From Patescibacteria group bacterium (GTDB taxonomy: Bacteria > Patescibacteriota > WWE3 > UBA101185 > UBA10185): 64,000 bases of DNA. The number at the start of each line of letters is the position of its first letter. Positions within the stretch are counted from its first letter, which is position 1. Below the pieces are notes generated by a model that saw only the letters and a list, made by a program, of their open reading frames with translations, was not told the DNA's origin and did not search any database. The DNA lies in contig JAUMAA010000003.1 in assembly GCA_032117075.1 (NCBI GenBank), forward strand, positions 41,574-105,573, in the 5' to 3' direction. Below are positions 5,104-53,305 of this stretch, in pieces. The translations under genes were made by a program, and so were the position numbers.

Positions 5104-5790
5104 ATGTCTAAGTTAGATGTTTTTCTCGATTTTATAGTTAAGTTATATCTTAAACTTTACTTTATAAACAAAAAAATAAATAAATTTTTTTCATTAATTT
5201 TTAACTTTATTTTAGAAAAAAGAACTTTCATTTTTGCTGTTATTTTTGTTTTCTTTTTTGTAGCATTAATTGACTTTCAAACTAAAAATCAAAAGCCCAC
5301 TAGAATGCAAGTTTCAAAATACAATATTTATACTGCTGAACCTTTAGTTTTAGGATCTTCAAGTGTGAGTTTGCATGGAATGGATTCAAGGGCTAAAAAA
5401 ATTGAGGGAGTTTTTAGAGCATACAACTGTCCCATGGCAGGAACTGGGCAGTATATCGTAGAACAAGCCGACAAAAATGGAATACCTTACTGGATTGTAG
5501 CTGCAATTGCCTTTCAAGAATCAATTTGTGGGAAGCTGACCCCTGAGAAGAATGGTGTAGAAAGCTATAATTCCTGGGGATGGGCGGTATATGGATCTTC
5601 AAGTAAGGCATTTAATAGCTATGAGCACGGGATTAAAGTTGTTTCAGAATACCTCTCTAAGCGATTTTTCAAGCAGGGTATTACCGAAACATGCGATATT
5701 ATGAAAGTTTATACCCCTCCAAGCAAAGGATCTTGGTGTAGAGGAGTGAATTATTTTGGTGAAAAAATACAAAATTTTGGAACTAAATAA
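5104..5790 (+). CDS. Membrane-anchored putative peptidoglycan hydrolase (GH73 glucosaminidase-like / lysozyme-like fold)
   Basis: N-terminal TM. AIAFQESICGK ... NSWGWAVYG ... YTPP blocks resemble the GH73 A.Q..ESGWG / N.FGI pattern. Paralogous to 5941-6450. Confidence 0.45.
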   Translation: MSKLDVFLDFIVKLYLKLYFINKKINKFFSLIFNFILEKRTFIFAVIFVFFFVALIDFQTKNQKPTRMQVSKYNIYTAEPLVLGSSSVSLHGMDSRAKKIEGVFRAYNCPMAGTGQYIVEQADKNGIPYWIVAAIAFQESICGKLTPEKNGVESYNSWGWAVYGSSSKAFNSYEHGIKVVSEYLSKRFFKQGITETCDIMKVYTPPSKGSWCRGVNYFGEKIQNFGTK

Positions 5791-5940: not shown

Positions 5941-6450
5941 ATGAAAAAATTATTAATTGTTATAAACTTTTTGTTGTTACCATTTGCGGTATTTGCTTCT
6001 TCAAAAGATTCATTAGATTCTTCGGATGCAAGAAACACCTATAAGGTAGAGTATAAAAAGGTCAATAGAAAAGAAGCTTTAACTAAGTTCTTTGAAAAAT
6101 ATAACTCTCCGTTAGCCAAAAATGTTGATACATTTATTACAACGGCTGATAAATACGGGATTGATTATAGATTGATACCTTCTATCTCATGTATGGAGTC
6201 AACCTGCGCTAAGTTTTTAATCGAAGGATCATATAACCCATTTGGATGGGGTATCTACGGAACAAATGTTATTTACTTCAAAAACTACGATGAAGCTATT
6301 ACTACTGTAGGTGAAGGACTTAACAAAGGATATTTCGCAAAAGGTTTTGACACCTTAGAAGAAATAGCACCAATCTATACACCACCAAACCATGTTAATT
6401 GGAAAAATGGAGTTTCATTCTTTATGAACGAAATTTCAAAGTTCGAATAA
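5941..6450 (+). CDS. Secreted putative peptidoglycan hydrolase (GH73-like), paralog of 5104-5790
   Basis: Signal peptide (MKKLLIVINFLLLPFAVFASS). Shares the GIDY..IPSISCMES ... NPFGWGIYG ... EEIAPIYTPP blocks with the upstream gene. Confidence 0.45.
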   Translation: MKKLLIVINFLLLPFAVFASSKDSLDSSDARNTYKVEYKKVNRKEALTKFFEKYNSPLAKNVDTFITTADKYGIDYRLIPSISCMESTCAKFLIEGSYNPFGWGIYGTNVIYFKNYDEAITTVGEGLNKGYFAKGFDTLEEIAPIYTPPNHVNWKNGVSFFMNEISKFE

Positions 6451-8068: not shown

Positions 8069-8153
8069 GGGCGAGTGGTGGAATTGGTATACACGCATGC
8101 CTTAGGAGCATGTTCCGCAAGGATTGAGAGTTCGAGTCTCTCCTCGCCCACCA
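8069..8153 (+). tRNA. tRNA-Leu (anticodon UAG), 85 nt with long variable arm, CCA encoded
   Basis: Folded by hand: acceptor GGGCGAG/CTCGCCC, anticodon stem catgc/gcatg with loop cuUAGga, long variable arm, T-arm gagag-TTCGAGT-ctctc, terminal ACCA. Confidence 0.9.
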
Positions 8154-8207: not shown

Positions 8208-8714
8208 ATGAATTTGTTATATAATTACAATATGAATCCTGAAATTTTAATCTTTATTCTACTAATTTTGTGTCTTATTCAGTTAGGAGTATTAATGCTC
8301 TTTTTATCAAAAGGGTTTAATGATTTACATAAAAATGACATAAAACTCTATAATATATTTAAAAATAATATAGAGCCCCAAAATGTAACATTTACTCCAG
8401 AAGTCAAAAATTTAGTAAGTTTGTCAAATGATATATGGAGATTTTCTAAGCATGTAGACAAAAACAATGACAAACTAGTTAATTTATCGGAGAGATTAAT
8501 TAGAGGATTGGATAAATTCGATATAAAAATAACTGATTTTACAGGTCAAAAAATTAGCGAAGATTTAAATGTAAAATCAGAGGTGATAAAAAATGACTCC
8601 AGTCTGGAAGATAACTATGTAATTAGTACAGAGTCACCGGCAATTTTTTATAAAGATAAAATGTATCAGCAGGGATTTGTTTTAATTAATAAAATAAATA
8701 AATCAGAAAGTTAA
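8208..8714 (+). CDS. Membrane-anchored protein; C-terminal half weakly GrpE-like (speculative)
   Basis: N-terminal TM. The C-terminal region (GLDKFDIKITDFTGQKISEDLN ... MYQQGFVLINK) loosely matches the GrpE C-terminal pattern. Its stop is 1 nt before the Hsp70 ATG. Confidence 0.5.
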   Translation: MNLLYNYNMNPEILIFILLILCLIQLGVLMLFLSKGFNDLHKNDIKLYNIFKNNIEPQNVTFTPEVKNLVSLSNDIWRFSKHVDKNNDKLVNLSERLIRGLDKFDIKITDFTGQKISEDLNVKSEVIKNDSSLEDNYVISTESPAIFYKDKMYQQGFVLINKINKSES

Positions 8715-8715
8715 T

Positions 8716-11226
8716 ATGGATAGTAAGAATATAAAAATAGGTATAGATTTAGGTACAACCAACTCAGAAGTATGTATTAGCAATAAAGGAAATCTTGAAA
8801 TAATCAAGAATAGATTTGGAAATGAGTTTACCCCCTCAGTTCTTTGGATTGATAAATCTTTAAATAAGCAAATAGGACAAAAAGCTTATGAAAATTTCTT
8901 TAACCTATTAGAACAGCAAAATGTTAAATCAGAAATTAAAAGACTGATGGGAACTAATGAAAAAGTCAAATTTCCTAGACTTGATAAAGAAATGACTCCT
9001 GAAGAGATTTCTGCAGAAATTTTAATCTCTCTAAAAGAAGATATTAAAAGAAAATATAATGATTTTGATTTAAACTATGCTGTTATAACAGTACCGGCAT
9101 ATTTTAGTATTCTTCAATCAGAAGCTACTAAAAGGGCTGGTGAAATTGCTGGTTTTAAGCACGTAGTTTTATTACAGGAGCCGATTGCGGCTGCAGTAGC
9201 ATACGGATTTATGAATTCAACTAACGAAACTTGGGTTGTTTATGACTTAGGTGGAGGAACTTTTGATGTAGCTTTAGTTAACTCTAAAGACGGGCTGCTT
9301 TCTGTTATAGCTCATAATGGAGATAACTTTTTAGGTGGAAAAGATTTTGATGCAGAAATTGTTTATCAGAAAGTTATTCCAGAATTAAAAGAACAGTTCA
9401 ACTTAGAAAACCTTTCAATTGAGGATGAAGAATTTAAAAAAATATTTAATATTTTGAAATATAGAGCTGAACAAGCCAAAAAAGAACTAACTTCTTATGA
9501 AGAAACTTCTATCGATATTGATAATATCGGTGAAGACGAAGATGGGGTAGAAATTAATACCACTATTAAACTCACAAAAAAAGAATTTGAAAATATTATT
9601 AGAGATAAAGTTTCAAAAACTATAGAATTAACCAAAGAGACTATAAAATCCTCAGGAATTGATCAAAACATGATTAAAAAAGTAATTTTAGTAGGGGGAC
9701 CTACTCAAATTCCTTATATTAGAGAAAGAATTGCCAAAGAATTAAAAATTGAGGTTGACACCTCATTAGACCCACTTTCTGCGGTTGCTAAAGGAGCTTG
9801 TATCTATGCCATGAGTCAAAATGTCCCAGATACTGTTTTTGATAAAAATAAAAAACAATTAATGGAGGGGGAGATGAGCTTAAAATTGGAATATAGGTCA
9901 TTATCGTCAGAAATTGAAGAAAATATTTATGGTTTATTAGAAAATATAGAACAAGATAAAGAGTATTTTGTACAAATACAATCAGATTCAAATCATTTCA
10001 GCAGTCCAAAAACCAAAATAAATAATGGAAAGTTTTTTAAAGAAGTTAATTTAGAAAAAAATAAAACAAATATTTTTTATATTTATATCTTCGATGAAAA
10101 AGGTAATATTATCAAAACTTCCCCAGATTCATTTTCAATAACTCAAGGCTTATCAATTGCAGGAGCACCTATTTCACATTCAATTGGTATTGTAGTAGCC
10201 GATAGAAATGAAAGCTTAGGAGAAAAAGAATTTAGAGATACATATTTAGTAGTTTTTGAAAAAGGATCAATTCTTCCTTTAAAAGATACTAGGACATTTA
10301 AAACAGTTAAAAAACTAGTGAAGAATGAAAAGAATGCAACATTAGATATTGTAGTAGGAGAGGGGGAGTCTAAAATTCCAGATAGAAATACATTTATTTG
10401 TACACTAGGAATAAATGGCCAAGAACTTCCGTACGATCTTCCATCAGGAACTGAAGTTGAAATCACAATTGAAGTAAACGAATCAAGGGAGGTATCAGTA
10501 GCTGCTTACTTCCCATTAATAGATAAAAAGTATAACGGCAGATCTTCTTTACTTTCTAGAGAAGTGGATTTAGAAAAAATTGAAGAAGAATTAGAAACTG
10601 AAAGCATGCGAATTGATGACATCTCAAAAAATATATCAGAGAATGCTTCAGACGAACTTAGAGAAAAACTTAGAAGTGTATACCATACAGTAAGAGGAGC
10701 TACAAGCGGTGTAGAGGAGAAAGAAAAAGCCGATAAAGAACTTAGAGAATTAAAAGTTTCTATTGATGAGCTTCAAGAGAAATCTGAAATGCCAAAACTA
10801 ACCAATCTATTCAGTGAATTAGTAAAGGATTCTAAAGAGTTTATTGAAACATATGCTTCGGAAGAAAAAAAAGATATATTTACTAAAAAACTTACACATT
10901 TAGAGACAGACGGGAACGAGGCTATAAAAAATAAAGACAAAAGAAAAATAAATCAAGTAATTGAATTACTTGAAGATTTAAAAGGAGAAATCATCTATTC
11001 TAACGATGCAACATGGATTTATCAGTTTAGAAAACTCTCAACTGAAGTTCTAAATTATACAAACTATTCAGATGCTCAATATTATATTAAAAAGGGCAAC
11101 GATGCTTTAATAAAAAACGATGTCGAAGAAATTAAAAGATGTGTTAGAAATTTATTACAGCTTCTAGAGAGGCCAGAAACCTTTGAGGGAAGTGATAGAA
11201 ACACAATATCTGGTATAAGAAAGTAA
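8716..11226 (+). CDS. Atypical Hsp70-family protein (836 aa): complete actin-like NBD, about 100-aa insertion, SBD-beta-like region, long helical C-terminal extension
   Basis: IGIDLGTTNS, VITVPAYF, DLGGGTFDV, LVGGPTQIPYIRE, DPLSAVAKGA Hsp70 NBD motifs. A later segment (IVVGEGESKIPDRNTFICTLGINGQ..PSGTEVEITIEVNESREVSVAAY) resembles the DnaK SBD-beta motif (V.qGER......LG.F.L.GI.....G.P.IEVTFDID.NG). Confidence 0.85.
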   Translation: MDSKNIKIGIDLGTTNSEVCISNKGNLEIIKNRFGNEFTPSVLWIDKSLNKQIGQKAYENFFNLLEQQNVKSEIKRLMGTNEKVKFPRLDKEMTPEEISAEILISLKEDIKRKYNDFDLNYAVITVPAYFSILQSEATKRAGEIAGFKHVVLLQEPIAAAVAYGFMNSTNETWVVYDLGGGTFDVALVNSKDGLLSVIAHNGDNFLGGKDFDAEIVYQKVIPELKEQFNLENLSIEDEEFKKIFNILKYRAEQAKKELTSYEETSIDIDNIGEDEDGVEINTTIKLTKKEFENIIRDKVSKTIELTKETIKSSGIDQNMIKKVILVGGPTQIPYIRERIAKELKIEVDTSLDPLSAVAKGACIYAMSQNVPDTVFDKNKKQLMEGEMSLKLEYRSLSSEIEENIYGLLENIEQDKEYFVQIQSDSNHFSSPKTKINNGKFFKEVNLEKNKTNIFYIYIFDEKGNIIKTSPDSFSITQGLSIAGAPISHSIGIVVADRNESLGEKEFRDTYLVVFEKGSILPLKDTRTFKTVKKLVKNEKNATLDIVVGEGESKIPDRNTFICTLGINGQELPYDLPSGTEVEITIEVNESREVSVAAYFPLIDKKYNGRSSLLSREVDLEKIEEELETESMRIDDISKNISENASDELREKLRSVYHTVRGATSGVEEKEKADKELRELKVSIDELQEKSEMPKLTNLFSELVKDSKEFIETYASEEKKDIFTKKLTHLETDGNEAIKNKDKRKINQVIELLEDLKGEIIYSNDATWIYQFRKLSTEVLNYTNYSDAQYYIKKGNDALIKNDVEEIKRCVRNLLQLLERPETFEGSDRNTISGIRK

Positions 11227-11227
11227 A

Positions 11228-12655
11228 ATGTCATTTCATAATAATTCTTATTTTATACTAGACTTAAATTCTAATTCAACCGATAAACAAATTCTAAAAA
11301 AATCAAACAATATGCTTTTAAAGATTAAAGCAGAAATAGATATAAATGAAGAAATTCATCATGAATTAGATTTAAGAATTGAAAGAAACGAACATACTAT
11401 AAATGAAGCGACTAAAAAACTAACTTTTCCAAAGAAAAAATTAGAAGAATTTTTTTTCTGGTTTGAGCTAGAGAATGAAACAGACCATCATTTCTATAAA
11501 CTTCTTTCACAAAAAAACTTCATCCAAGCTATTAAATTTTTAAAAAAAGGAATTGAAGAAGATGAGTTAAGAAAATTTAAATACGAGAAAAACTTAGCAC
11601 TATGTTTTCTACTTATGCTAAATATTGATTATGATGAATCTATACTTTTAGAATCGATAAATTTATGGAAAAAATTAATTCATAATTCAAGTTTTTGGGC
11701 TGAGTTTTTTGATAAATATAGAACAAAAGAAGAGGGACTGGTTAATAAAGATTTAATGATTGAATTTAAATCTGAAATAGAAAATTTGATCTTTGAAGAA
11801 TATGAACATATTTCTAGCAGCTATCCAAAAGAAAGAATTATTGAAAAATTATTTACAATTTTAAAACCTCAAAATACTAGTATCTTTTCAAAATATTTAG
11901 AAAAATATATCTCTAAAGTTAACTCAATTTTAGAAAAATTTAATTCAATGGAATTCAAAGATAATAAAATAGGACAAATACAGAAAAATAAAATATCTGA
12001 AAATTTAGATAAATTAAAAGAATTATTTAATTATTTTGAATCTTTAGGGCTAGAAAATGAATCATCTATTAAAATACTGGGGGACGAGGTAGCCCAAAAT
12101 CTAGAGAGCCTATCTATTAAAATTAACAATCAGATTAAAGATTATGAAACATCTTATAAAATACTATCTATAGCATTGAAGTTTGTTGAAAGCAGCTCTA
12201 TTAAAAAAGGTATTGAAACAAATCTTGCAATAATAATTGAAAATAGAGAAGTTATAGCATTAAACACAATATATGAACTAATAAGAAGTGCAAAATTTGC
12301 ATCTGCATTAGTTTCAATTGATTATTTACTAAAGGATAGAAACACAAAAGATGAAACCAAAAAAACTTTAAGGGAACTAAAAGATAAAATTAAAGTGAAC
12401 AGAGATATGGATAAAACACTAATGAAAAACAAACCACTTTTATTTGATATTTTTGGGTTTGGGTTATTGTTGTATGGAGATATTAGATATCTTACATTTT
12501 TTTACATTCCAGTCTGCCCAATTTCAAGCTATAATACAATTAATAATTATGATGGTTCTACTTCATTTTTAGGAGAAAAGGAACTGGATTCCTTTTACTA
12601 TGGTTGGAAAGTAGTCTTCATAGCAGGAGTAATAATTTGGTTGTTAAGTAACTAA
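11228..12655 (+). CDS. Hypothetical helical protein with two C-terminal TM helices; N-terminus resembles a J-domain with degenerate HPD (speculative)
   Basis: YFILDLNSNSTDKQILKKSNNMLLKIKAEID aligns to the J-domain consensus YYEILGVSKTAS..EIKKAYRKLAMKYHPD, with HPD replaced by AEI. Hydrophobic C-terminus. Confidence 0.5.
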   Translation: MSFHNNSYFILDLNSNSTDKQILKKSNNMLLKIKAEIDINEEIHHELDLRIERNEHTINEATKKLTFPKKKLEEFFFWFELENETDHHFYKLLSQKNFIQAIKFLKKGIEEDELRKFKYEKNLALCFLLMLNIDYDESILLESINLWKKLIHNSSFWAEFFDKYRTKEEGLVNKDLMIEFKSEIENLIFEEYEHISSSYPKERIIEKLFTILKPQNTSIFSKYLEKYISKVNSILEKFNSMEFKDNKIGQIQKNKISENLDKLKELFNYFESLGLENESSIKILGDEVAQNLESLSIKINNQIKDYETSYKILSIALKFVESSSIKKGIETNLAIIIENREVIALNTIYELIRSAKFASALVSIDYLLKDRNTKDETKKTLRELKDKIKVNRDMDKTLMKNKPLLFDIFGFGLLLYGDIRYLTFFYIPVCPISSYNTINNYDGSTSFLGEKELDSFYYGWKVVFIAGVIIWLLSN

Positions 12656-12657
12656 AA

Positions 12658-13152
12658 GTGGGAAAATACGAATACGATACAAATTTAAATAATGATATAC
12701 CCTTTGAGACAAATCCTAATGTTACAAATAAAAAAGAACCTAATAGATTTGGTAGTGGAATAATTGTTTTAGTTATCATAGGAATTTTAGGTTACTTAAT
12801 CTCAACAAATAAAAACACTTCTATAAACAGTTCAAACAATGGTTCCAGCGATTCGAGTATTGTAGAATCAGGAAACGATACATATATTTGTTCTAAATAT
12901 AATATTTCTAAACTAAAAGATCTTACCCCAAGCTCAATCCTAAAAAATGAAATTGACGATTTAGAAAATAAACAAAATAAACTTGAAAGAGAATTGGATT
13001 CTATAGATCCTGATAGCAATCCTTATTTATATAATTCCAAAGTTGACGAATATAATGATATTGTTAGTAAATTAAAAGTAAAACTAAGCAACTACAATCA
13101 ACAAGTTGATAACTATAATGATTATTTAATTAAAAATTGTAATAAAAAATGA
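12658..13152 (+). CDS. Membrane-anchored coiled-coil protein
   Basis: Single TM (GIIVLVIIGILGYLIST), then a Ser/Asn-rich linker and a heptad-like helical region. Overlaps the next gene by 4 nt. Confidence 0.5.
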   Translation: MGKYEYDTNLNNDIPFETNPNVTNKKEPNRFGSGIIVLVIIGILGYLISTNKNTSINSSNNGSSDSSIVESGNDTYICSKYNISKLKDLTPSSILKNEIDDLENKQNKLERELDSIDPDSNPYLYNSKVDEYNDIVSKLKVKLSNYNQQVDNYNDYLIKNCNKK

Positions 13153-14216
13153 AACCCTTACTTTATAATAATTATAAAATTTCAGAAAACCTATTTGTAG
13201 TGAAAAGAGAAGAAAAAATTTTCTTTACTGAAATTTATAGTCTTTCAGATGGAAATTATCTTTTCTTATTTTTAAATATTAAACCAGATGAAGTGGTAAA
13301 TATAAATCAAGAATTAGAAATTGTAAAATTAAACATTGGAGGAGAAAACTATTTAGGTGTAATAGCTGACAGCTTTTCAGGAGAAAAAATTTATGAAATT
13401 TCTGAAAAACTCACTCAAATAAAAGGTTTGGATAGTGTTGCTGGAATGAAAGAATTGAAAAATCTTTTATATAATGAGGTCATAGAACCCTTAAGAAACC
13501 CAGAAAAGTTTAAAAAATTTAAAATATCAATACCTAACGGAATTTTACTTTTTGGACCTCCAGGCTGTGGTAAAACTTATATTGTAAAAAAATTGGCCGA
13601 AGAGTTAGGTTATTCGTTTATAGAACTTAACCCTTCTTCAGTTGCATCCCCCTATATTCACGGTGCAGTTTCAAATATCGGAAAAGTTTTTGAGATGGCA
13701 AGACTTCAAGCACCGTCTATTATCTTCATTGATGAAATAGAAGGATTACTTCCAAAAAGAGAAGATTTAGGATCCCATGCAGATACTAAAAAAGAGGAAA
13801 TAAATGAATTTTTACTCCAGCTAAATAATTCCAGTGAGAGCAATGTTTTAGTTGTAGGAGCTACAAATAGACCATCTATTATTGATTCGGCAATTTTAAG
13901 ATCAGGAAGAATGGACAAAAGAATATATGTAGGTCCACCGGATTATGAGTCAAGAAAAGAGTTGTTCAAACTTTCTCTATTAGGCAGACCTTTTGATAAT
14001 AAAATTAATTTGGACAAACTAGCTAAAGTTACTGAAAATTATGTAAGTTCTGATATATCTTTGATAGTTAATCAATCCGCAAGAAATGCACTTCAAAATA
14101 ACCAAGAGTATATAACAGAAGAAAATATTTTAAATATAATAAAAAATACTATTCCATCCATCTCAGAAGAGGATTTGAACTACTATCAGAACTATAGAAA
14201 TCTTGAAAGGTGGTAA
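13149..14216 (+). CDS. AAA+ ATPase, classical clade (Vps4/katanin/FtsH-like single AAA domain) with an N-terminal domain of about 120 aa
   Basis: Walker A GPPGCGKT, Walker B IIFIDEIE, SRH ATNRPSIIDSAILRSGRMDKRIYVGPPD. Confidence 0.85.
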   Translation: MKPLLYNNYKISENLFVVKREEKIFFTEIYSLSDGNYLFLFLNIKPDEVVNINQELEIVKLNIGGENYLGVIADSFSGEKIYEISEKLTQIKGLDSVAGMKELKNLLYNEVIEPLRNPEKFKKFKISIPNGILLFGPPGCGKTYIVKKLAEELGYSFIELNPSSVASPYIHGAVSNIGKVFEMARLQAPSIIFIDEIEGLLPKREDLGSHADTKKEEINEFLLQLNNSSESNVLVVGATNRPSIIDSAILRSGRMDKRIYVGPPDYESRKELFKLSLLGRPFDNKINLDKLAKVTENYVSSDISLIVNQSARNALQNNQEYITEENILNIIKNTIPSISEEDLNYYQNYRNLERW

Positions 14217-14265: not shown

Positions 14266-14997
14266 TTATTTCTTTTTGATAATCATTAAAATTTCTTTAG
14301 TTTCAGAACCTTGACTTTGAGGTATTTCTTTAAAACTTACTTCGCAAGAAAGACCCAGGGCTTCAATAATATCTAAATAATATTTTTGAGATTTATTCCT
14401 TAATTCTTCAAGATTTCTATATCTAAGATTTGATTTGATAACAGGAAATATCCTAACCTCACCACCTACCTTTAAAATATTAAAAACATTTGTTAAATAC
14501 TTTTTAAATTCTTTTTCGCCTTCCTCATGAAGGTAGAGTCCAGGCCCAAAAGTATCGACAATTAAATCAAAAGCCCCATCCTTAAAGGGCAAGTTTGGAG
14601 CAAAGGCAGCCACAGCCAACCCATCACTTCCTTTAAGCCTTTCTTCTCTTACCTTTTGAGGATCCTCATCTTTTCCTGCAAAGTAATAATCTTTATTGTT
14701 ATCAATAATTTTATTAGTGTAATAAATTGACTGGATATCTCCTTTTTGATCTCTTTCAACCACACTTAAAAAATCTTTTTTGCTAATAGCTAGTGTTGGG
14801 TCCAAAGAAATAACTTGTAAATCAGGTCTTTTAGCAGAAAGACCCGCTGCAAAATTTCTAAAAACACCGCTTCCAACTTCAAGAACTCTAGCTTTTTCTG
14901 GTAAATTTTGAATAAAGGCATCTGACAGATCTAAATAAGGGGAGAGCTGTTCAAAACTTCTATTGGTTACATAAAAACTTGTTTCTTTATTTATCAT
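14266..14997 (-). CDS. Class I SAM-dependent methyltransferase-like protein
   Basis: Motif I VLEVGSGV, acidic end of beta2 (SLDP), FDLIVDTFGPGLYL, LKVGGEVRIF. Paralog of 15008-15808. Confidence 0.55.
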   Translation of the reverse strand: MINKETSFYVTNRSFEQLSPYLDLSDAFIQNLPEKARVLEVGSGVFRNFAAGLSAKRPDLQVISLDPTLAISKKDFLSVVERDQKGDIQSIYYTNKIIDNNKDYYFAGKDEDPQKVREERLKGSDGLAVAAFAPNLPFKDGAFDLIVDTFGPGLYLHEEGEKEFKKYLTNVFNILKVGGEVRIFPVIKSNLRYRNLEELRNKSQKYYLDIIEALGLSCEVSFKEIPQSQGSETKEILMIIKKK

Positions 14998-15007
14998 AAA
15001 TTTATTA

Positions 15008-15808
15008 TTAAACTGTTTTCTTTAAAACTAATACTAATGCTTCTTCTTTACTAATAGTATCTTGAATTATTTTAAAATTTAAATCGAAATTTAGGTTATC
15101 TTTTTGGCAAATATTTTTATAAAATTCATGTGTCGTTTGTATGTCTAATTTAATATCGTCATCTTGATCTAGATTGCCATTTATTTTATCAACTTGAACC
15201 TGAACATCTACGGCTGGAAAAATTCTTGCTACACCTCCCGGTTTTAAAATTCGATAAATTTCCTTCAAATATTTATCAAGTGAAGGATTTTCTTTTGTTT
15301 GCAAATAAATACCTGGTCCATAAATATCAATTATTAAATCTATAGATTCATCTCTAAGGGGAATCTGAGGTGCCAGTGCTGCAATAGGAAAACCAGTCTC
15401 GTGTGCTCTTTGGATTCTTGTTTTGGAAAATTCTTTTTGGTTTTCAACCTTAATTGAATCTTTTTCAGGTTTTAATTTTCTATCTTGGTACCATTTAACC
15501 TTTCTAAGGTATTGGGCATACTTAAACTTACCGCTATTCTTTGGGTCTTTTCTATAGTAAATATCAAAAGAATTTTTATTATCTGATCCAATTATAATTG
15601 TAGGATCAATAGTAATTGGCTTAATATCAGGTCTTAATTTCTTCACTCCTTCAGCAAAATTTTGGTCCAATCCACCCCCAATTTCTAAAACAACGGCATT
15701 TTCAGGTAATGATTTGATATAGTTTTCGCTTAACCCTGACATCCAGAGGAGCTCTTTTAATTCTCGGTTAGTTAAATAAAATTCAGGTATATTTGACATT
15801 TCTGACAT
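15008..15808 (-). CDS. Class I SAM-dependent methyltransferase-like protein (tandem paralog)
   Basis: VLEIGGGL, TIDP, IDLIIDIYGPGIYL, LKPGGVARIF. Same architecture as 14266-14997. Confidence 0.55.
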   Translation of the reverse strand: MSEMSNIPEFYLTNRELKELLWMSGLSENYIKSLPENAVVLEIGGGLDQNFAEGVKKLRPDIKPITIDPTIIIGSDNKNSFDIYYRKDPKNSGKFKYAQYLRKVKWYQDRKLKPEKDSIKVENQKEFSKTRIQRAHETGFPIAALAPQIPLRDESIDLIIDIYGPGIYLQTKENPSLDKYLKEIYRILKPGGVARIFPAVDVQVQVDKINGNLDQDDDIKLDIQTTHEFYKNICQKDNLNFDLNFKIIQDTISKEEALVLVLKKTV

Positions 15809-44229: not shown

Positions 44230-47200
44230 TTAATCATTAAAATACTTAAATATTGTTTTGCTTCTTGTAACATTAAACATCTTATAAGACCTCAGGTCTT
44301 GTTGTAAATAAATTAATACATCTGGGTTTTGAGAAATATTTATAAAGGATCTATCTTCATTTTGAGTACTTAAATTTCCAATTAATTTAAAGTCTCCATA
44401 GATACCACCTTTTAAGTGATAAACTGCTCTATTGCCACAAATAAGAGAATAGTTCTCTAAATCAGAACAATCCACATGGAAAACAATTCTCTCTTTGATA
44501 TTTGATTTATCAGTTGAAACAAAGTAAACATTTTCTAAGTTGTTATAAATATTTAAATCTGTAAGATCAAAGTATAGTTGTTTATTTTTTGCAACATAAA
44601 TTATTGTTGGAGTTGCAGATACTGGAACACTGTTAAAAGCATCAATTTTATTGAAATTATTTACAGAGCCCGATGGTTTCGTGTCTGTTAGTAGTAAAGA
44701 AGTAACTTGTGTTTCAGGTAAGGCATAGTCAACTAAATTTTCAGTATAACTAAAATTAAATGCCTTAGTCAGCTTATCAAAATAAGGAATATTAAAATAA
44801 GAAGGACCCATCAAAGTATTACTTAATCTAAAATTTTTACCGCCCTGAGCAGAACCTGAAACATAAACACCTTCATACCTTTTATCCACATCAGAAGTAG
44901 TATAAAACTTTACATCACTTGATCTTTTTATCATTGTATTTCCGTTAACTCTAAAATTTAAGTAAGAGGTAGGAGGCTGAACATTTCCGGAGGTTAAATA
45001 AATATCTAAAGATTGAGGAACTAAATTATAACTATTAACTACATTTGATTTATAAAACAAATCCAAACATCCATTATTGATTGTTCCGGTAAAGTAGTTA
45101 TTAGAAATAGAGCTGGTTGATGTAGTTGTTGAATTTGTAAATCCAATTCTACTTACTTTAGTATCAGCAGTATTGGTAAAACAAATTTTATATTTCACAT
45201 TATCAATCAAAGTATTACCTGATTTACTTAGGTCATGATCCCAGAAAAAATTAGAAAAGGTATCTTTATGCAGTGTGAATGAAGATTCACCGTCGGGTGC
45301 GGTAAGATTTCTTTGTTGAGGAGTAACATTTTTGAAAGTTTTGGTTACAACCATTTTGGCATCGGCAAAAGGATCCTGATCTTGATTATCTAAATAAGTA
45401 AATATATTTATGAAACTTTGAAGTGTGTAATACCTATTAGGATCTATACCTAAAGATGGGTAATTATAGACAGTTCCGTTGTAATTAAAACTTATTTTAT
45501 AAAAATATTTCTCAAAATTAGGTGACTTAACATTTAAAAAATTAAAAGATTTTCTATCAGACAATAAATTTGCAGCTAAAGTTGTCGGAAGTGGGGCAGA
45601 GGTAATGCCGTCATAAAGAGTAAGATACATTTTAGTTCCAGCGGGAACATTTACTATACCTGAGGGGCAGCTTAAATTAATAGCCGAATTAAATGTGTAA
45701 TTTAGGTTATAAGTAGAAGTTGTTGTATCAATAGCAGAGGGTACTATTCCTTTATTTATAGAATTTGGATCTGTATTTATAAGAGTTAAACCACCCGCAA
45801 CTAGATTGTAATTAGGCACACACTCTGGGGTAGTTGGAGGGACTTTTGAAGTTAGAACATAGTTTCTAGAAACAAAAATTGCATAATCATTATCTGTATT
45901 TGCATCATCGTTATTGTAATATCTAAATGTTAATGGAGCATTATTTCCGGGCCCAAGAGAAGGGAATTTGTAACCTCCGTTTGTTTCATTTAATTCAAAG
46001 AGTCTGTGTGTTCCAGTGGGTGAATTAAATTTTTCAGCCCTAAACATTCTAGACTTTGCACTTAAGTTATTCTTAGAATCTACAAAATTAGGAGCAATTA
46101 AAATATCGACATCATTTCCAGAATTTACACTAAAGCTAACATTCTTCAAGTAACTCAGAGAAACATTTCGTAGTGCAATAAATTTTGTTTGAGTTGGCTG
46201 ATTCCCCATGTACCCACTAAATTCAAACCTCTTAAATACTAAATTGCTGTTGGCATACTGAAGGGTGAAGTAGTATTTATCTGAGACATAATCAGCCAAG
46301 ACACCTGATCCTACACCTAATTTTGGTACAACCTCGAAGGTTAGAAGGGAGGGTACCGGTTCAAATTTATAGTTTTCTATTCTATACTTGTAGTACCAGT
46401 CACTAGAACCTGGGAAATAGATTCTTACTAGATCAACTCTATTTTTAAGGTTATAGGCTGCTAACGGAGAATCGTAACCCCCAAATACCCAATTTAAGGA
46501 ACTCTGATTCTGAAGTGTAGGATTGAACCCGTAATAGACTCTATTATAAAAGTCTTTGTAGTCCCCTTTGTTATCTTTAAATATCCCATAATTTGGAAAT
46601 TTTATAGCTGATGCGTTACTCCACTCATGTCTATTATCTCCACTTGAGCTAACCCTTAAAACCATATTAATACCGTATTCAAGTTCTGAAAAAGGAGCGG
46701 CACAGTTATTTTTCGACTTCCCAATACAATATGACTTAGCATCCCTAGTGGCACTTCCTCCAGAACTTGGACCCTGGTTTACAAATATATTAGGGTTTAA
46801 AGATAATCTAGGTCCAGAAAAAGAAGAAGGAGCTACATTGAAGGACATCCTGGTAATGTTTGGATAGTTGTAGTACTGACTGTAACCTTCTTTATTCAAA
46901 GTAACACATTGATACCTCCTATCCCAGCATGATTCAGTAGCTGAAAGACGACAATTACTTTCTAGAGGTACACCAAGAGTTTGAGCCCTTCTTAAGCATT
47001 CAACATTTCCCCTATATGTAGTTCCCCAACCACCTTGCGGATCCTTTCTTTCATAACATCTATTCTCCAACAGATCTTCAAGACCTCCGCCTCCAAAAAT
47101 AACGGTATTATTTTTTTTGGCTATAGAAGAAGGAAACCAGCTAGACTTACATCCAGCTGTATAGCCAACATTTCCAAATGTTTTAAAAGACCTAGTGATA

Positions 47201-47781
47201 TTAACGACACTTTGAGGGTTTGTATTTAAAAGAATTTCATAAAAACCACCATAATAAACAAGTAATGGGACCCCACTAATATTTTCTAAGACAGGATTAC
47301 CATAATATTCAATTCCTGAACTATTTATTTGGACATTAGGCACTGCTACAGTTGATGTAACTGTAGTGGAAACCGCATAACTAGTAGTATAGGTATTATT
47401 AAAAGAGGTGTTAGATGAAAAATCAGAAACAGAAGACACTCCGAAAGTTGGTAATCTATTTACAGTTACAATATTTGTAATCTGTTGATCAACAGTTTTA
47501 ATAGAGTAGGTGGTTTTAGTACAAAAGAAATCCATAAATGGCTGACTATCGTCACACTCAGGTCTAATAACATCTTTCATAAGATAGTTAGTGACTTTAT
47601 AAACATCTTCTGTTTCAGTAGTAGCGGCTAATACTTGAGACCAATCATCTTCCTGGTTAGTGTTTTGATTTGAAATTAAATTAGGGTAGAAGTAGTATCC
47701 AGTAAAAATTAAAACGGATAACATAAATAATTTTATGATCGTCCAATTTGAAATTTTACTAGGAAGTGTAATTCTACCCAT
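44230..47781 (-). CDS. Very large (1183 aa) N/S/T/Y-rich secreted/surface protein encoded within the T4P locus (PilY1-like tip adhesin role possible)
   Basis: Single N-terminal TM/signal anchor, beta-rich low-complexity composition, sits between the pilD and minor pilin genes. Confidence 0.55.
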   Translation of the reverse strand: MGRITLPSKISNWTIIKLFMLSVLIFTGYYFYPNLISNQNTNQEDDWSQVLAATTETEDVYKVTNYLMKDVIRPECDDSQPFMDFFCTKTTYSIKTVDQQITNIVTVNRLPTFGVSSVSDFSSNTSFNNTYTTSYAVSTTVTSTVAVPNVQINSSGIEYYGNPVLENISGVPLLVYYGGFYEILLNTNPQSVVNITRSFKTFGNVGYTAGCKSSWFPSSIAKKNNTVIFGGGGLEDLLENRCYERKDPQGGWGTTYRGNVECLRRAQTLGVPLESNCRLSATESCWDRRYQCVTLNKEGYSQYYNYPNITRMSFNVAPSSFSGPRLSLNPNIFVNQGPSSGGSATRDAKSYCIGKSKNNCAAPFSELEYGINMVLRVSSSGDNRHEWSNASAIKFPNYGIFKDNKGDYKDFYNRVYYGFNPTLQNQSSLNWVFGGYDSPLAAYNLKNRVDLVRIYFPGSSDWYYKYRIENYKFEPVPSLLTFEVVPKLGVGSGVLADYVSDKYYFTLQYANSNLVFKRFEFSGYMGNQPTQTKFIALRNVSLSYLKNVSFSVNSGNDVDILIAPNFVDSKNNLSAKSRMFRAEKFNSPTGTHRLFELNETNGGYKFPSLGPGNNAPLTFRYYNNDDANTDNDYAIFVSRNYVLTSKVPPTTPECVPNYNLVAGGLTLINTDPNSINKGIVPSAIDTTTSTYNLNYTFNSAINLSCPSGIVNVPAGTKMYLTLYDGITSAPLPTTLAANLLSDRKSFNFLNVKSPNFEKYFYKISFNYNGTVYNYPSLGIDPNRYYTLQSFINIFTYLDNQDQDPFADAKMVVTKTFKNVTPQQRNLTAPDGESSFTLHKDTFSNFFWDHDLSKSGNTLIDNVKYKICFTNTADTKVSRIGFTNSTTTSTSSISNNYFTGTINNGCLDLFYKSNVVNSYNLVPQSLDIYLTSGNVQPPTSYLNFRVNGNTMIKRSSDVKFYTTSDVDKRYEGVYVSGSAQGGKNFRLSNTLMGPSYFNIPYFDKLTKAFNFSYTENLVDYALPETQVTSLLLTDTKPSGSVNNFNKIDAFNSVPVSATPTIIYVAKNKQLYFDLTDLNIYNNLENVYFVSTDKSNIKERIVFHVDCSDLENYSLICGNRAVYHLKGGIYGDFKLIGNLSTQNEDRSFINISQNPDVLIYLQQDLRSYKMFNVTRSKTIFKYFND

Positions 47782-49169: not shown

Positions 49170-50381
49170 TTATAATCCTCCTACGGTGCCGATAATACTA
49201 TAGATTGGGGTAATCACCGATAAAATTATTCCCCCAACACTAACTCCTAATACTATTAATATAATAGGTTCAATTGCTGCTGACAATCCTTTGATTGCAT
49301 AACTGGATTCATTTGCATAATTGTCTGCAACTTTATCTAGTAGTTCATCTACTTTACCAGTTTCTTCTCCGATTTTAATCATAGAAGGAATAATTGGATC
49401 AAAAAATTTATTGGATCTAAAATAATCAGATAAGTTATTTCCTTTTTCAATATATTTTGAAGCCTCTAAAGAGGCAGTGATAATAATAATGTTAGAAGAA
49501 ACTCTTGCAGAGATTATCAATGCTTCTGTAATCTGAACTCCAGAACCAATTAGCAAAGATAAAATTCTCATATAACTTGAAAGTTCTGTTTGTTTTAAAA
49601 CTTTTCCAATAACTGGAATTTTGAAAAGTATTGTTGACATTATTGATTTTCCTTCAGGAGAAATCAAAAATAATCTTAAAAGAATTCCTCCTGCAATAAT
49701 GACAATTAGAAAAACATACCAGTAATTGATTAACACATTTGATAAATTAATTAAAAATTGAGTATGCCAAGGAAGTTCTTTATCTAATGATTTAAAAATT
49801 TCAGTAAGTTTAGGAACTACATAAACAATTAAAACTAAAATAACAATAATCATTACAACTAAAATTATGGCAGGGTAAATCAAAGCTGCTTTAAGTCTAG
49901 ATTGCAAATCCCTGTTTGATTCATATGTCTCTGCAATTCTTGCAAGAATGCTATCTAACTTACCAGATGATTCTCCTGCTTTTATTAAAGCAGTATAAGA
50001 AGAGTCAAAAATTGCAGGAAACCTAGACATGGCACCAGAAAGGGAAGTACCGGCATCAACATCTTTACTTATTTCAGTTAGTATTTTTTTAAAGTTGTTA
50101 TTAGTGGTTTGGTCAATACAAATCAATAAAGATTTGGTGATAGTTAAACCTGAATTAATCATGGTAGAAAATTCCCTAGAGAATTCAGTAACTTCTTCAA
50201 AACTAACACCTCCAATAGAGGAGAGGGTATCCAAAAAAGATGCATGTTTTTCAGCAATTGAAACAACTATTAAGGATTGAGATTTGAGAATAGTAAGGGC
50301 ATCTTGTTGTGATTTTGCTTCAACTGTACCTGTTTTAGAGTTTCCAAGGGAATCTTTAGCTGAAAAATCATATATCGGCAT
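49170..50381 (-). CDS. pilC: Type IV pilus platform protein PilC (GspF family)
   Basis: Two T2SSF-like repeats with three TM segments; about 400 aa. Confidence 0.85.
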   Translation of the reverse strand: MPIYDFSAKDSLGNSKTGTVEAKSQQDALTILKSQSLIVVSIAEKHASFLDTLSSIGGVSFEEVTEFSREFSTMINSGLTITKSLLICIDQTTNNNFKKILTEISKDVDAGTSLSGAMSRFPAIFDSSYTALIKAGESSGKLDSILARIAETYESNRDLQSRLKAALIYPAIILVVMIIVILVLIVYVVPKLTEIFKSLDKELPWHTQFLINLSNVLINYWYVFLIVIIAGGILLRLFLISPEGKSIMSTILFKIPVIGKVLKQTELSSYMRILSLLIGSGVQITEALIISARVSSNIIIITASLEASKYIEKGNNLSDYFRSNKFFDPIIPSMIKIGEETGKVDELLDKVADNYANESSYAIKGLSAAIEPIILIVLGVSVGGIILSVITPIYSIIGTVGGL

Positions 50382-51511: not shown

Positions 51512-53305
51512 CTAACTGAGTGCTACCCTCATAACTTCAGAAATATTTGTTTGACCTTCAACTGATTTTAAAAAACCATCCTGCATTAAAGTTACCATTC
51601 CCTGAGAAATAGCAATCTCTTCAATCTCTTGTGCAGATTTTCTTTCGATAGTGGCCTTAGAAATTTCAGGACTCATTGGAAAAAATTCATAAATTCCAAT
51701 TCTTCCTTGATAACCAATATTGTTACACTTATCACAACCAACTGGTCTGAATAATTTAAAGTCACCTTTTTCGATTAACTGGATGCTATCAAATATTTTT
51801 TTATCTTTACTTTCTAAAATATGATTATCTTGAAGTTTCTTTAAGGAATCTTTAACCAAAAGTTTAATATCCTCAGGAGGATCGTATTCTTGTTTACAAT
51901 TAACACAAAGTTTTCTAACTAATCTTTGAGCTAACACTCCGTTACAAGTAGAGGAGAGAAGGTAATTCTCAACATTCATATCTAAAAGTCTCGGTATAGC
52001 ACCAGTTGCGGAATTTGTGTGTAAAGTTGATAGAACCAAGTGACCTGTTAGAGCCGCTTGTATGGCGAGACCTGCGGTCTCGCCATCTCTAATTTCTCCA
52101 ACCATTATTATATTAGGATCTTGCCTTAAAAAACTTCTCAAAGCAGAAGCAAAAGTAAGCCCTGCTTTCACATTTACTTGAACTTGATTTACACCTGGAA
52201 CTCTAATTTCAACCGGATCTTCAATAGTTACAATATTAACTCTAGAGGTATTTAACTTCTGTAATGCCGAGGCTAAAGTCACAGTTTTACCAGAACCTGT
52301 TGGTCCGGTTACTAAAATTATTCCAGTTGGTTTAAGTAGTGCCTCTTCAAACCTTCTTAAGGTCAAGCCTCTCATACCTAAGTCTTGAAAAGAATAAACT
52401 GTAGATTGTTCTTTAAGTAACCTAATCACTACCTTCTCACCAAAAACAGTTGGAAGAGTAGAGACTCTTAAATCGGTAAAAGTATTTCCAACTTGGACTT
52501 TAAATCTTCCATCCTGAGGAATTCTTTTTTCATCAATTTTTAATCCAGATAAAACCTTAATTCTCGCAACTATTGAATCACTCATTTCTTTTGGAAAAGT
52601 CCTTCTTTCCTCTAAAACTCCGTCGATTCTATATCTTAGTCTTACTTTTTCTTCCGAGGGTTCTAAGTGAATATCTGAGGCACCTAGCTTAACTGCTGTT
52701 TCTACAATCATACCGACAATTCTCGCCACAGGAGCATCTTTTAAAACTTCATCATCTTTGGTTAATGTACCGCTACCATCAATCCTTAATGCTTGGGTAG
52801 TTGCGGAAATCTCTTCCATTGCTTTAGTAACATCTTCACCCAAATTCTTAGATCTAGCATCTTCTAAAACATCTTCAATATCCCTTTTGGTAGCTACATA
52901 TGGAACAACTTTTAAATTAGTTTTCTTTTCTAAAAATTCTATAATTTCTAAATTCATCGGATCAGACATAGCGACTTGAAGAATTTCGGACATTTGATTA
53001 AAAGGTGCTAATTCATATTTTTTGGCTAAATCTAATGGGACAAGTTCAAAAAGTTTAGGACTAATCTTCTTTCCTTTGAGAACAACATATTCCATTCCAT
53101 ATACTTGGGAGTAGGCGAGAGCATATTCTTCGCCAGAAACTAAATTTGATTCTTTCAAAACCTCACGAGTAGATTTACCTGTATTGGTGCTTTCTATTCT
53201 CAAAGCATCATATTGCTGTTGATTTATTTTTCCAGCAACAAGTAAAACATCTTCAATAGTCTTGAAATTAGTATTTTGATTTGTACTATAATTCAAATCA
53301 GGCAT
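51512..53305 (-). CDS. pilB: Type IV pilus assembly ATPase PilB (GspE family)
   Basis: N-terminal T2SSE_N-like domains, Walker A GPTGSGKT, tetra-Cys (CVNCK...CDKCNNIGYQG) zinc motif. Confidence 0.85.
   Translation of the reverse strand: MPDLNYSTNQNTNFKTIEDVLLVAGKINQQQYDALRIESTNTGKSTREVLKESNLVSGEEYALAYSQVYGMEYVVLKGKKISPKLFELVPLDLAKKYELAPFNQMSEILQVAMSDPMNLEIIEFLEKKTNLKVVPYVATKRDIEDVLEDARSKNLGEDVTKAMEEISATTQALRIDGSGTLTKDDEVLKDAPVARIVGMIVETAVKLGASDIHLEPSEEKVRLRYRIDGVLEERRTFPKEMSDSIVARIKVLSGLKIDEKRIPQDGRFKVQVGNTFTDLRVSTLPTVFGEKVVIRLLKEQSTVYSFQDLGMRGLTLRRFEEALLKPTGIILVTGPTGSGKTVTLASALQKLNTSRVNIVTIEDPVEIRVPGVNQVQVNVKAGLTFASALRSFLRQDPNIIMVGEIRDGETAGLAIQAALTGHLVLSTLHTNSATGAIPRLLDMNVENYLLSSTCNGVLAQRLVRKLCVNCKQEYDPPEDIKLLVKDSLKKLQDNHILESKDKKIFDSIQLIEKGDFKLFRPVGCDKCNNIGYQGRIGIYEFFPMSPEISKATIERKSAQEIEEIAISQGMVTLMQDGFLKSVEGQTNISEVMRVALS

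Follow-up and report, generated by a model that had tools for sequence, protein, structure and literature searches.

The window analysed here is a stretch of 64,000 nucleotides from a Patescibacteria group bacterium (GCA_032117075.1, contig JAUMAA010000003.1, positions 41,574 to 105,573 of the forward strand). Its genes and its low GC likewise point to an organism of the Patescibacteria kind. Near its beginning lies a compact operon of five forward-strand genes, designated A-B-C-D-E (8208-14216), which are separated by gaps of 1-2 nt or overlap by 4 nt. Gene B (8716-11226), an open reading frame (ORF) of 836 aa with an ATG start, encodes a paralog of the Hsp70 chaperones. It is preceded by gene A (8208-8714; 168 aa), whose stop codon ends 1 nt ahead of the start of B, and followed by gene C (11228-12655; 475 aa, helical), gene D (12658-13152; 164 aa) and gene E (13149-14216; 355 aa), the last of which overlaps D by 4 nt and encodes an AAA+ ATPase. 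An original prediction for this locus had dealt with the unusual architecture of B; most of the interest lies, however, in the five-gene operon and in its mobile, defence-island context, which that prediction missed.

The nucleotide-binding domain (NBD) of B comprises residues 1-365 (8716-9810), as delimited with the Pfam HSP70 family and the DnaK NBDs available in the PDB. Residues 8-365 constitute the sole match of B to Pfam HSP70 (PF00012; E 6.6e-80), covering profile positions 2-372 of 599; alignments of B to the NCBIfam models of DnaK and HscA are likewise confined to the NBD, and phmmer comparison with the PDB sequences aligns B with DnaK NBDs (E 3.7e-61). The equivalents of the catalytic residues K70, E171, D194, T199 and D201 of DnaK are invariant among 141 aligned full-length members of the B family, and the phosphate-1, phosphate-2 and adenosine motifs that mark the Hsp70 superfamily are present. 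The NBD motifs are thus intact, as had been proposed, and B is predicted computationally from its catalytic residues to be an ATPase-competent Hsp70. Two arginines are not retained. R167 of DnaK is the classic contact of the aspartate in the J-domain HPD motif, as known from R167 suppressors and from structure 5NRO; its equivalent is Val in the B protein of the window and is variable across the family. The equivalent of R151 is replaced by Ser in the window and is Ser or Cys in the family. Furthermore, B scores 268.7 bits against a cutoff of 822.55 for TIGR02350 (DnaK), 273.5 against 648 for NF001413 (DnaK) and 238.2 against 708.55 for TIGR01991 (HscA). Judged by these curated cutoffs and by defining features, B is neither DnaK, HscA nor HscC.

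Scans of the C-terminal 470 aa of B with Pfam, NCBIfam and PADLOC returned nothing significant, even up to E 10. The anatomy of this part was derived from an AlphaFold2 model of B built from 19 homologs (mean pLDDT 81.4), from a second model of residues 376-615 (pLDDT 88.6) and from family alignments. The NBD is followed by a variable and probably flexible tether (residues 366-386; 9811-9873), which shows a median identity of 16% to other family members and falls below pLDDT 50 at residues 376-381. It stands at the position of the interdomain linker of DnaK (389-VLLLD-393); no VLLLD-type motif was found after the NBD in the alignments, in line with the reported absence of a canonical linker. 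Residues 387-477 (9874-10146) form a seven-stranded Ig-like/FN3-like beta-sandwich (pLDDT about 86-90). The distance between the NBD and the beta part of the substrate-binding domain (SBD-beta) is 115-132 residues in all 140 full-length cluster representatives, and the insert proper measures 87-99 residues. An insertion of about 100 aa in front of SBD-beta had been proposed, and both the alignments and the models agree with it; the positions originally given for the insert and for SBD-beta lie within about 40 nt of the boundaries derived here. The insert had also been called Asn/Lys-rich, a description that did not hold: its Asn plus Lys content is 20.9%, compared with 17.2% in the whole of B, and its composition is not odd. 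It is a conserved, folded Ig-like domain rather than a composition-driven spacer. A duplicated SBD-beta basket was ruled out as its source, since it has no similarity to SBD-beta (P 0.29).

A conserved junction follows the insert (residues 478-488; 10147-10179; family consensus from alignments GLSVSGAPLPHS), in which a remnant of the DnaK motif TPLSLG persists as APISHSIG. Model and profile comparison place an eight-stranded SBD-beta at residues 489-610 (10180-10545). The profile of the family SBD region matches canonical SBD-beta sequences with a probability of 98.3% (E 1.4e-14), and a second, insignificant phmmer stretch lays B 500-604 on the SBD-beta of Geobacillus DnaK. The loops L1,2 (+11), L3,4 (+5) and L5,6 (+3) are longer in B. 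The pocket, formed in B by I492, F528, L543 and I545, stays hydrophobic throughout the 141-sequence alignment, so that both the SBD-beta-like region and the conservation of its substrate cleft, which had been suggested as a check, are confirmed. The remaining 226 aa (residues 611-836; 10546-11223) contain eight helices within 619-816, and 39% of the residues of this region are charged. This is the long charged helical C-terminus of the original prediction, where it appeared as a 240-aa extension with a possible lid function. The tail is helical as stated, but it is an extension only in part: over residues of about 697-757, hhalign comparison with Hsp70 lids gave a weak match (P 0.013, 60 columns), by which a lid role is faintly suggested. 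In a Foldseek search full-length DnaK was the best PDB fold match of B, with alignments of 630-790 columns that enter the lid. B family members end in a conserved motif, [LMI][SA]GIT[RKH], which reads ISGIRK in the window; like the EEVD tail of eukaryotic Hsp70, it may serve as a docking site. No transmembrane (TM) helix was predicted in B or E.

When 1.84 billion cluster representatives were searched, B aligned end to end with at least 150 proteins, each about 830 aa long (E 1e-242 to 1e-94). Because of these homologs and of the insert found in 140 of 140 representatives, the architecture is ancestral to a sizeable family and is neither a fusion artefact nor a lineage-specific expansion.

The partner genes were examined with iterated hidden Markov models (HMMs) across 63 loci, namely 59 close-clade loci (one genome per species, 185,579 species genomes), three metagenomic loci and the window. 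A is found directly upstream of B in 48-51 of the 63 loci, C is present in 54-56, D in 36 and E in 51. The gene order is nearly always A-B-C-(D)-E, with zero to two copies of D, and it recurs in about 50 loci. A distant branch (L003, L060 and Thermodesulfitimonas autotrophica) has the order C-A-B, lacks the AAA gene and has a C protein that ends in a fused, D-like coiled coil. A scan of the operon for promoters and terminators gave no useful signal in DNA so rich in AT, with 29 sites against 34 expected. Two unusual members of the B family were also noted. P0140 (1,012 aa) begins with a J-like N-terminus of the C type, fused to an Hsp70 paralog without roughly the first 85 NBD residues, while P0033 (1,544 aa) holds two copies of the paralog head to tail, the first truncated inside the helical tail; both could be true fusions or assembly artefacts.

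Scans of A, C and D with Pfam, NCBIfam and PADLOC yielded nothing significant, even up to E 10, and their relationships were sought by local profile comparison. A has a TM helix near its N-terminus (residues 13-31) and a C-terminal domain that is possibly GrpE-like. When a GrpE HMM built from five sequences was run on 3,070 ORFs, 10 of its 11 matches were members of the A family (E 3e-4 to 0.017), and hhalign comparison of A with the GrpE C-terminal domain gave P 3e-4 over 77 columns, as against 0.13-0.44 in six control comparisons. On balance, these profiles favour a relationship of A to GrpE, which makes it a candidate nucleotide-exchange factor (NEF).

The N-terminal part of C, roughly 75 aa, aligns with eight canonical J-domains (hhalign probability 93.7%, E 1.9e-7, 59 columns). 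A PDB profile search with C returned J-domains as 12 of the 17 top matches, with marginal E values (0.017-0.9), and all 10 matches of a J-domain HMM among the 3,070 ORFs were C family members, each at the N-terminus. The Pfam DnaJ model stayed below threshold on C, and a word-index homolog search with C recovered only three relatives. The HPD motif is absent from C in the window and occurs, at a shifted position, in one of 52 family members, the consensus around its site being ..KIDDxPEYD... Judging from these alignments, which recover helices I-III, the N-terminus of C is a J-domain homolog without HPD, and C is a candidate adaptor or sensor.

E consists of a conserved N-domain (residues 1-93) and an AAA module (94-348), and matches Pfam AAA (PF00004; 8.9e-35) and AAA_lid_3. 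Its closest solved relatives are VAT and the D2 module of Cdc48/p97, the best single D2 stretch reaching E 9e-47. The Walker A motif GPPGCGKT, the Walker B residues DE, the pore-loop aromatic residue and the arginines of the second region of homology (SRH) are kept in 51 sequences. By these intact motifs E is a single-module classic AAA+ ATPase that is predicted to be motor-competent. The E HMM also finds the AAA partners in the plasmid and Escherichia coli cassettes (5e-65 to 4e-102).

The predicted topology of D places a short N-terminus in the cytosol, followed by a single TM helix (31-49); outside the cytoplasm lie a Ser-rich linker and a coiled coil with two Cys. A single TM helix was predicted in 39 of 47 A proteins and in 38 of 41 D proteins, and many C proteins, including that of the window, end in a hydrophobic, in the window tail-anchor-like, segment; proteobacterial A proteins have no TM helix. 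For the clade of the window, these predictions suggest that the machine is held at the cytoplasmic membrane by A and D and probably also by C. A multi-TM protein of roughly 104 aa was additionally seen near the cassette in 16 loci, on either side (e.g., L013:13194-13508), and is absent from the first 22 kb of the window.

Components of the cassette recur in about 50 genomes of Patescibacteria, DPANN archaea and Proteobacteria, and also on plasmids. The close clade of 59 loci includes many Patescibacteria, DPANN archaea and Omnitrophota, as well as metagenome-assembled genomes (MAGs) labelled Proteobacteria, Bacteroidota and others. Two loci of one study, L008 (labelled Gracilibacteria) and L009 (labelled Bacteroidales), are 100% identical over 9,447 bp; they represent one contig binned twice, and the MAG taxon labels of these loci are therefore unreliable. 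The spread is nevertheless real, since high-GC alphaproteobacterial loci carry partly ameliorated modules. In 41 of 49 loci the module has a lower GC content than the DNA around it, with a mean difference of 4.4 points; in the window the values are 27.6% for the module and 31.2% for the flanks. Large serine recombinases, tyrosine integrases and DNA methyltransferases are the commonest families among 150 flanking proteins. A large serine recombinase abuts the cassette in 12 loci (L004, L005, L026, L032, L033, L042, L047 and five more); it is always the proximal gene, on either side of the module, and in seven of the 12 a terminase-large-subunit-like gene lies just past it. These neighbours prompted the idea of a phage-borne cassette, which was rejected, as searches of 50,697 phage records and 2.9 million viral contigs (IMG/VR) recovered no relative.

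Cassettes with the order A-B-E-(D)-C or C-A-B were found on proteobacterial and Bacteroidota plasmids and in one E. coli. Only one of 5,426 E. coli genomes, that of HeN100, carries the cassette (NZ_CP044443.1, about 4,115,500-4,122,300; L070), which is complete, ordered A-B-E-D-C and located inside a CP4-like island together with RADAR rdrB, a dptF remnant and insertion sequence (IS) elements. In Polaromonas the neighbours include ZorA (Zorya), in Sinorhizobium medicae a Type IIG restriction-modification enzyme and Gabija (GajA 4.5e-275, GajB 9e-241), and in Haliscomenobacter BREX brxL/pglZ and a McrBC-like pair. In two plasmids, of Shewanella and Aeromonas, the cassette is the first cargo after Tn7-like tnsABCDE, and in Aminobacter and Pseudomonas it is accompanied by an integrase, IS elements and toxin genes. 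Three proteobacterial operons contain a PG_binding_1 protein (L067:11338-12186, L068:10801-12246 and L071:12807-14372), a possible sign of an envelope-associated component that corresponds to D in the window. Frameshifts or an ISNCY insertion interrupt B in L041, L052, L056, L057, L069 (S. medicae plasmid) and L071 (Aeromonas caviae plasmid), which suggests that the cassette decays frequently. Overall, it behaves as horizontally mobile accessory DNA.

Taken together, we believe that the cassette encodes a dedicated, mobile Hsp70–AAA+ bichaperone that probably takes part in conflicts with phages or with other mobile elements, and to this reading we assign a probability of about 0.6. From the computed domain anatomy, motif and operon conservation, partner homologies and genomic context, we infer an exchange activity of A, an order of hand-over, a type of client and a role in defence, as follows. 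C would recognise or recruit the client and would position B through a rewired contact between its J-like domain and the NBD, both sides of which would have diverged together from the canonical HPD–R167 pair: C has lost HPD, and B has lost R167. B would then grip a hydrophobic stretch of the client with its SBD-beta and hydrolyse ATP, and the Ig-like domain, which takes the position of the short allosteric linker, may serve as a spacer or as a docking platform to which C or E binds. A would reset B by nucleotide exchange, and B would pass the client to hexameric E, which might thread it and then unfold or extract it, analogous to the feeding of ClpB by DnaK–DnaJ–GrpE. The target could be a protein of the invader or, as an abortive response, an envelope protein of the host. 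The cassette is accessory DNA found in defence islands and as transposon and plasmid cargo, and a conflict role is therefore the most likely one. The more specific idea of an unnamed immune system is tentative and on the whole doubtful. Such a system would detect an invader or invader-induced protein in a chaperone-type manner and unfold or extract it at the envelope by means of ATP, using a Cdc48-like unfoldase and a private Hsp70 cycle of a GrpE-like exchanger, the Hsp70 with its Ig-like insert and an HPD-less J-like sensor, rather than a nuclease, NADase or pore effector.

Several observations weigh against the bichaperone reading. No GrpE match to A was obtained in Pfam or in two profile searches of PDB sequences, and the hhalign probability of A as GrpE is weak (12-40%). 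Among the canonical DnaK, GrpE, J-domain, SBD and lid references of the local profile comparisons, only the E. coli GrpE sequence was verified against the PDB (1DKG); the conclusions on the NBD, SBD-beta, J-like and AAA parts are independently supported by PDB-based searches. The loss of the linker and of the J-contact residue could mean that the coupling between ATP and substrate has been lost rather than rewired. With regard to defence, no recognisable toxic effector (nuclease, protease, TIR or pore-former) is encoded in the cassette, the link to defence islands comes from about ten annotated contexts, and PADLOC-DB v2.0.0 contains no match for A, B, C and D of the window, nor for A, B and the C-like C' encoded by the homologous plasmid cassettes. 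Finally, the flanks in the window look like ordinary chromosome, with a tRNA-Leu, methyltransferase-like genes and MsrA.

The most serious competitor, although unlikely in our view, is a housekeeping-type motor of membrane proteostasis or translocation with no part in immunity, by which reduced, surface-attached symbionts would pull, insert or extract envelope proteins. It may be likened to the mitochondrial import motor (mtHsp70, the J-like Pam16 and Mge1) or to extraction of the Msp1/Cdc48 type. The TM helices of A and D, the hydrophobic tails of many C proteins, the extracytoplasmic domain of D, the peptidoglycan-binding proteins of the plasmid operons and the prevalence of Patescibacteria or DPANN among the hosts would all suit such a machine. 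In E. coli, moreover, HscC works at the membrane with the tail-anchored DjlB and DjlC (PMC8215388). The presequence translocase motor likewise combines a membrane-associated Hsp70, tethered J and J-like proteins, an HPD-less Pam16, to which C offers a parallel, and the GrpE-type Mge1 (PMC5773037); the cassette, by contrast, has no recognisable translocon, contains an AAA+ unfoldase and lacks a DnaK-type linker. The resemblance is one of analogy only. A core physiological function also fits poorly with the rarity and patchiness of the cassette (59 close-clade loci among 185,579 species genomes and a single E. coli), with its low GC and frequent disruption, with its presence in Tn7 cargo, plasmids and defence islands, and with the missing TM helix of proteobacterial A, all of which would suit an accessory gene set better. 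A further alternative, which we regard as improbable, is that the cassette serves its carrier element by remodelling replication or transfer proteins, or through addiction or counter-defence, instead of protecting the host. Plasmids and phages classically use DnaK, DnaJ and GrpE to remodel replication initiators, and the occurrence of the cassette on conjugative and mobilizable plasmids, directly after tnsABCDE and next to integrases would agree with such a use. However, many chromosomal copies, including that of the window, have no adjoining mobility gene, the carriers are elements of several types with none among the phage and viral collections, and Tn7-like cargo and integrative islands often hold defence genes that benefit the host.

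Two other explanations concern B itself. It might be an Hsp110-like co-chaperone, acting as NEF or holdase for canonical DnaK with no chaperone action of its own, a role recently proposed for bacterial NBD-containing DnaK derivates (PMC13580251). B does share with Hsp110/Grp170 a large size, an additional segment, a longer helical C-terminus and a diverged linker, and the loss of the linker and of R167 would be understandable in such a protein. The likeness is superficial, though. Hsp110 is restricted to eukaryotes, its insertions, for the most part acidic or disordered, are found within SBD-beta and within the lid, and it is itself an NEF without private J or NEF partners; the prokaryotic B has a discrete fold in front of SBD-beta, catalytic residues and a pocket conserved family-wide, and a recurrent AAA+ unfoldase, while its operon supplies a J-like and possibly an NEF-like partner that an NEF would not need. 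We thus consider this explanation very unlikely. That B is an ordinary DnaK, HscA or HscC orthologue with a mis-aligned region, or a fusion artefact of two genes, has virtually no probability left. Relatives are indeed labelled 'molecular chaperone DnaK' or 'Hsp70 family protein'; the scores (268 vs 822 bits for DnaK, 238 vs 708 for HscA), a match that stops at the NBD and an insertion of 115-132 aa in every full-length representative refute a standard DnaK domain order, just as the continuous frame and the collinear end-to-end homologs refute an artefact. Both outcomes had been named in the original prediction as grounds for discarding it.

DnaK, HscA and HscC are the only studied bacterial Hsp70 types that have been recognised (PMC8215388), and the other bacterial DnaK derivates, HscA and to a lesser extent HscC aside, have been termed unexplored 'dark matter' (PMC13580251), in agreement with the earlier remark that such paralogs are rarely characterised. 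Similar to DnaK–DnaJ–GrpE with ClpB, the cassette would comprise an Hsp70-type ATPase that has an SBD-beta and a helical, weakly lid-like tail, a J-domain homolog, a weakly GrpE-like candidate and a coupled pore-loop AAA+ ring protein. Unlike the DnaK system, B has an Ig-like domain in place of the VLLLD linker and does not conserve R167 and R151, C lacks HPD, A is only remotely GrpE-like and membrane-anchored, and the whole is one mobile accessory operon instead of a universal set. ClpB/Hsp104 possesses two AAA+ modules and a coiled-coil M-domain that binds the Hsp70 NBD, whereas E has one AAA module with an N-domain of roughly 93 aa, no M-domain and no ClpB-type match.

HscC resembles B in being a specialised Hsp70 with J-protein partners encoded nearby and tail-anchored in the inner membrane (DjlB/DjlC), in its L1,2 insertion (4-8 aa in HscC, 11 in B) and in a sporadic distribution suggesting horizontal transfer (PMC8215388). 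It differs in its size of 550-580 aa, NBD deletions, shortened lid, and absence of an inserted domain and of an NEF (PMC8215388), in the functional J-domains of DjlB/DjlC as opposed to the HPD-less C, and in having no AAA+ partner. With 836 aa, an inserted domain and an enlarged helical region, B has only the L1,2 insertion in common with the HscC type.

Hsp70-like proteins have also been reported from predicted conflict systems in mobile, defence-linked neighbourhoods, as in the case of CnuD of CoCoNuT (PMC11090510), of GAP1-N2/DO-GTPase systems, in which HSP70, GrpE and DnaJ fusions occur (PMC7159879), and of EACC1-protease-DnaK-like fusions (PMC12642450). In contrast to these, the cassette module contains no McrBC, GTPase, tubulin, HEPN or protease-effector genes, and neither the Ig-like insertion nor a Cdc48-like AAA+ partner is described in the three reports. 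CnuD is set apart by its description, as it has degenerate Walker A-like motifs and CnuB/C partners (PMC11090510), while the ATPase motifs of B are invariant. In IetAS, the AAA protein IetA is paired with the subtilisin-like protease IetS. E scores 106 bits against the NCBIfam IteA cutoff of 510, no protease gene is present in the operon, and the PADLOC IetA match of E (1.9e-35) is weaker than its generic Cdc48 and FtsH matches. None of the CoCoNuT, GAP1-N2 and EACC1 systems, as described, matches the architecture of B together with its partner set. A literature search likewise found no description of either the B architecture or the cassette, although this search was incomplete and an earlier description is possible.

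Bacterial Hsp70 biology is essentially that of DnaK, HscA and HscC, and the B family adds a derivate that is now sharply defined by an Ig-like domain in the place of the allosteric linker and by a fixed set of partners. This raises the question of how Hsp70 allostery and J-domain signalling operate without the VLLLD linker, R167 and HPD, as well as that of a chaperone–unfoldase pair as a stand-alone conflict or immune module. If protective, the cassette would represent a mechanistically new class of prokaryotic immunity and would widen the known defence repertoires of the ultrasmall Patescibacteria and DPANN archaea. Given that cultivable hosts and the complete genome of E. coli HeN100 carry it, direct cloning and phage challenge are feasible.

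Some further features were observed in the window. A tRNA-Leu gene (8069-8153, forward strand) is located 54 nt upstream of gene A; integration often takes place at tRNA genes. Two adjacent paralogous genes on the reverse strand (14266-14997 and 15008-15808) follow closely after the cassette, the former without a Pfam match and the latter with a weak match to Methyltransf_11. An ORF of 1,183 aa without a Pfam match (44230-47781, reverse strand) belongs to a cluster resembling type IV pilus and type II secretion systems, which also includes T2SSF (49170-50381) and the T2SSE ATPase (51512-53305). Upstream of the cassette, the neighbouring forward-strand genes at 5104-5790 and 5941-6450, which have no Pfam match, encode proteins with N-terminal hydrophobic segments and the common motifs …IPSISCMES.C…GWG.YG…, and they may be cell-wall hydrolase-like paralogs.

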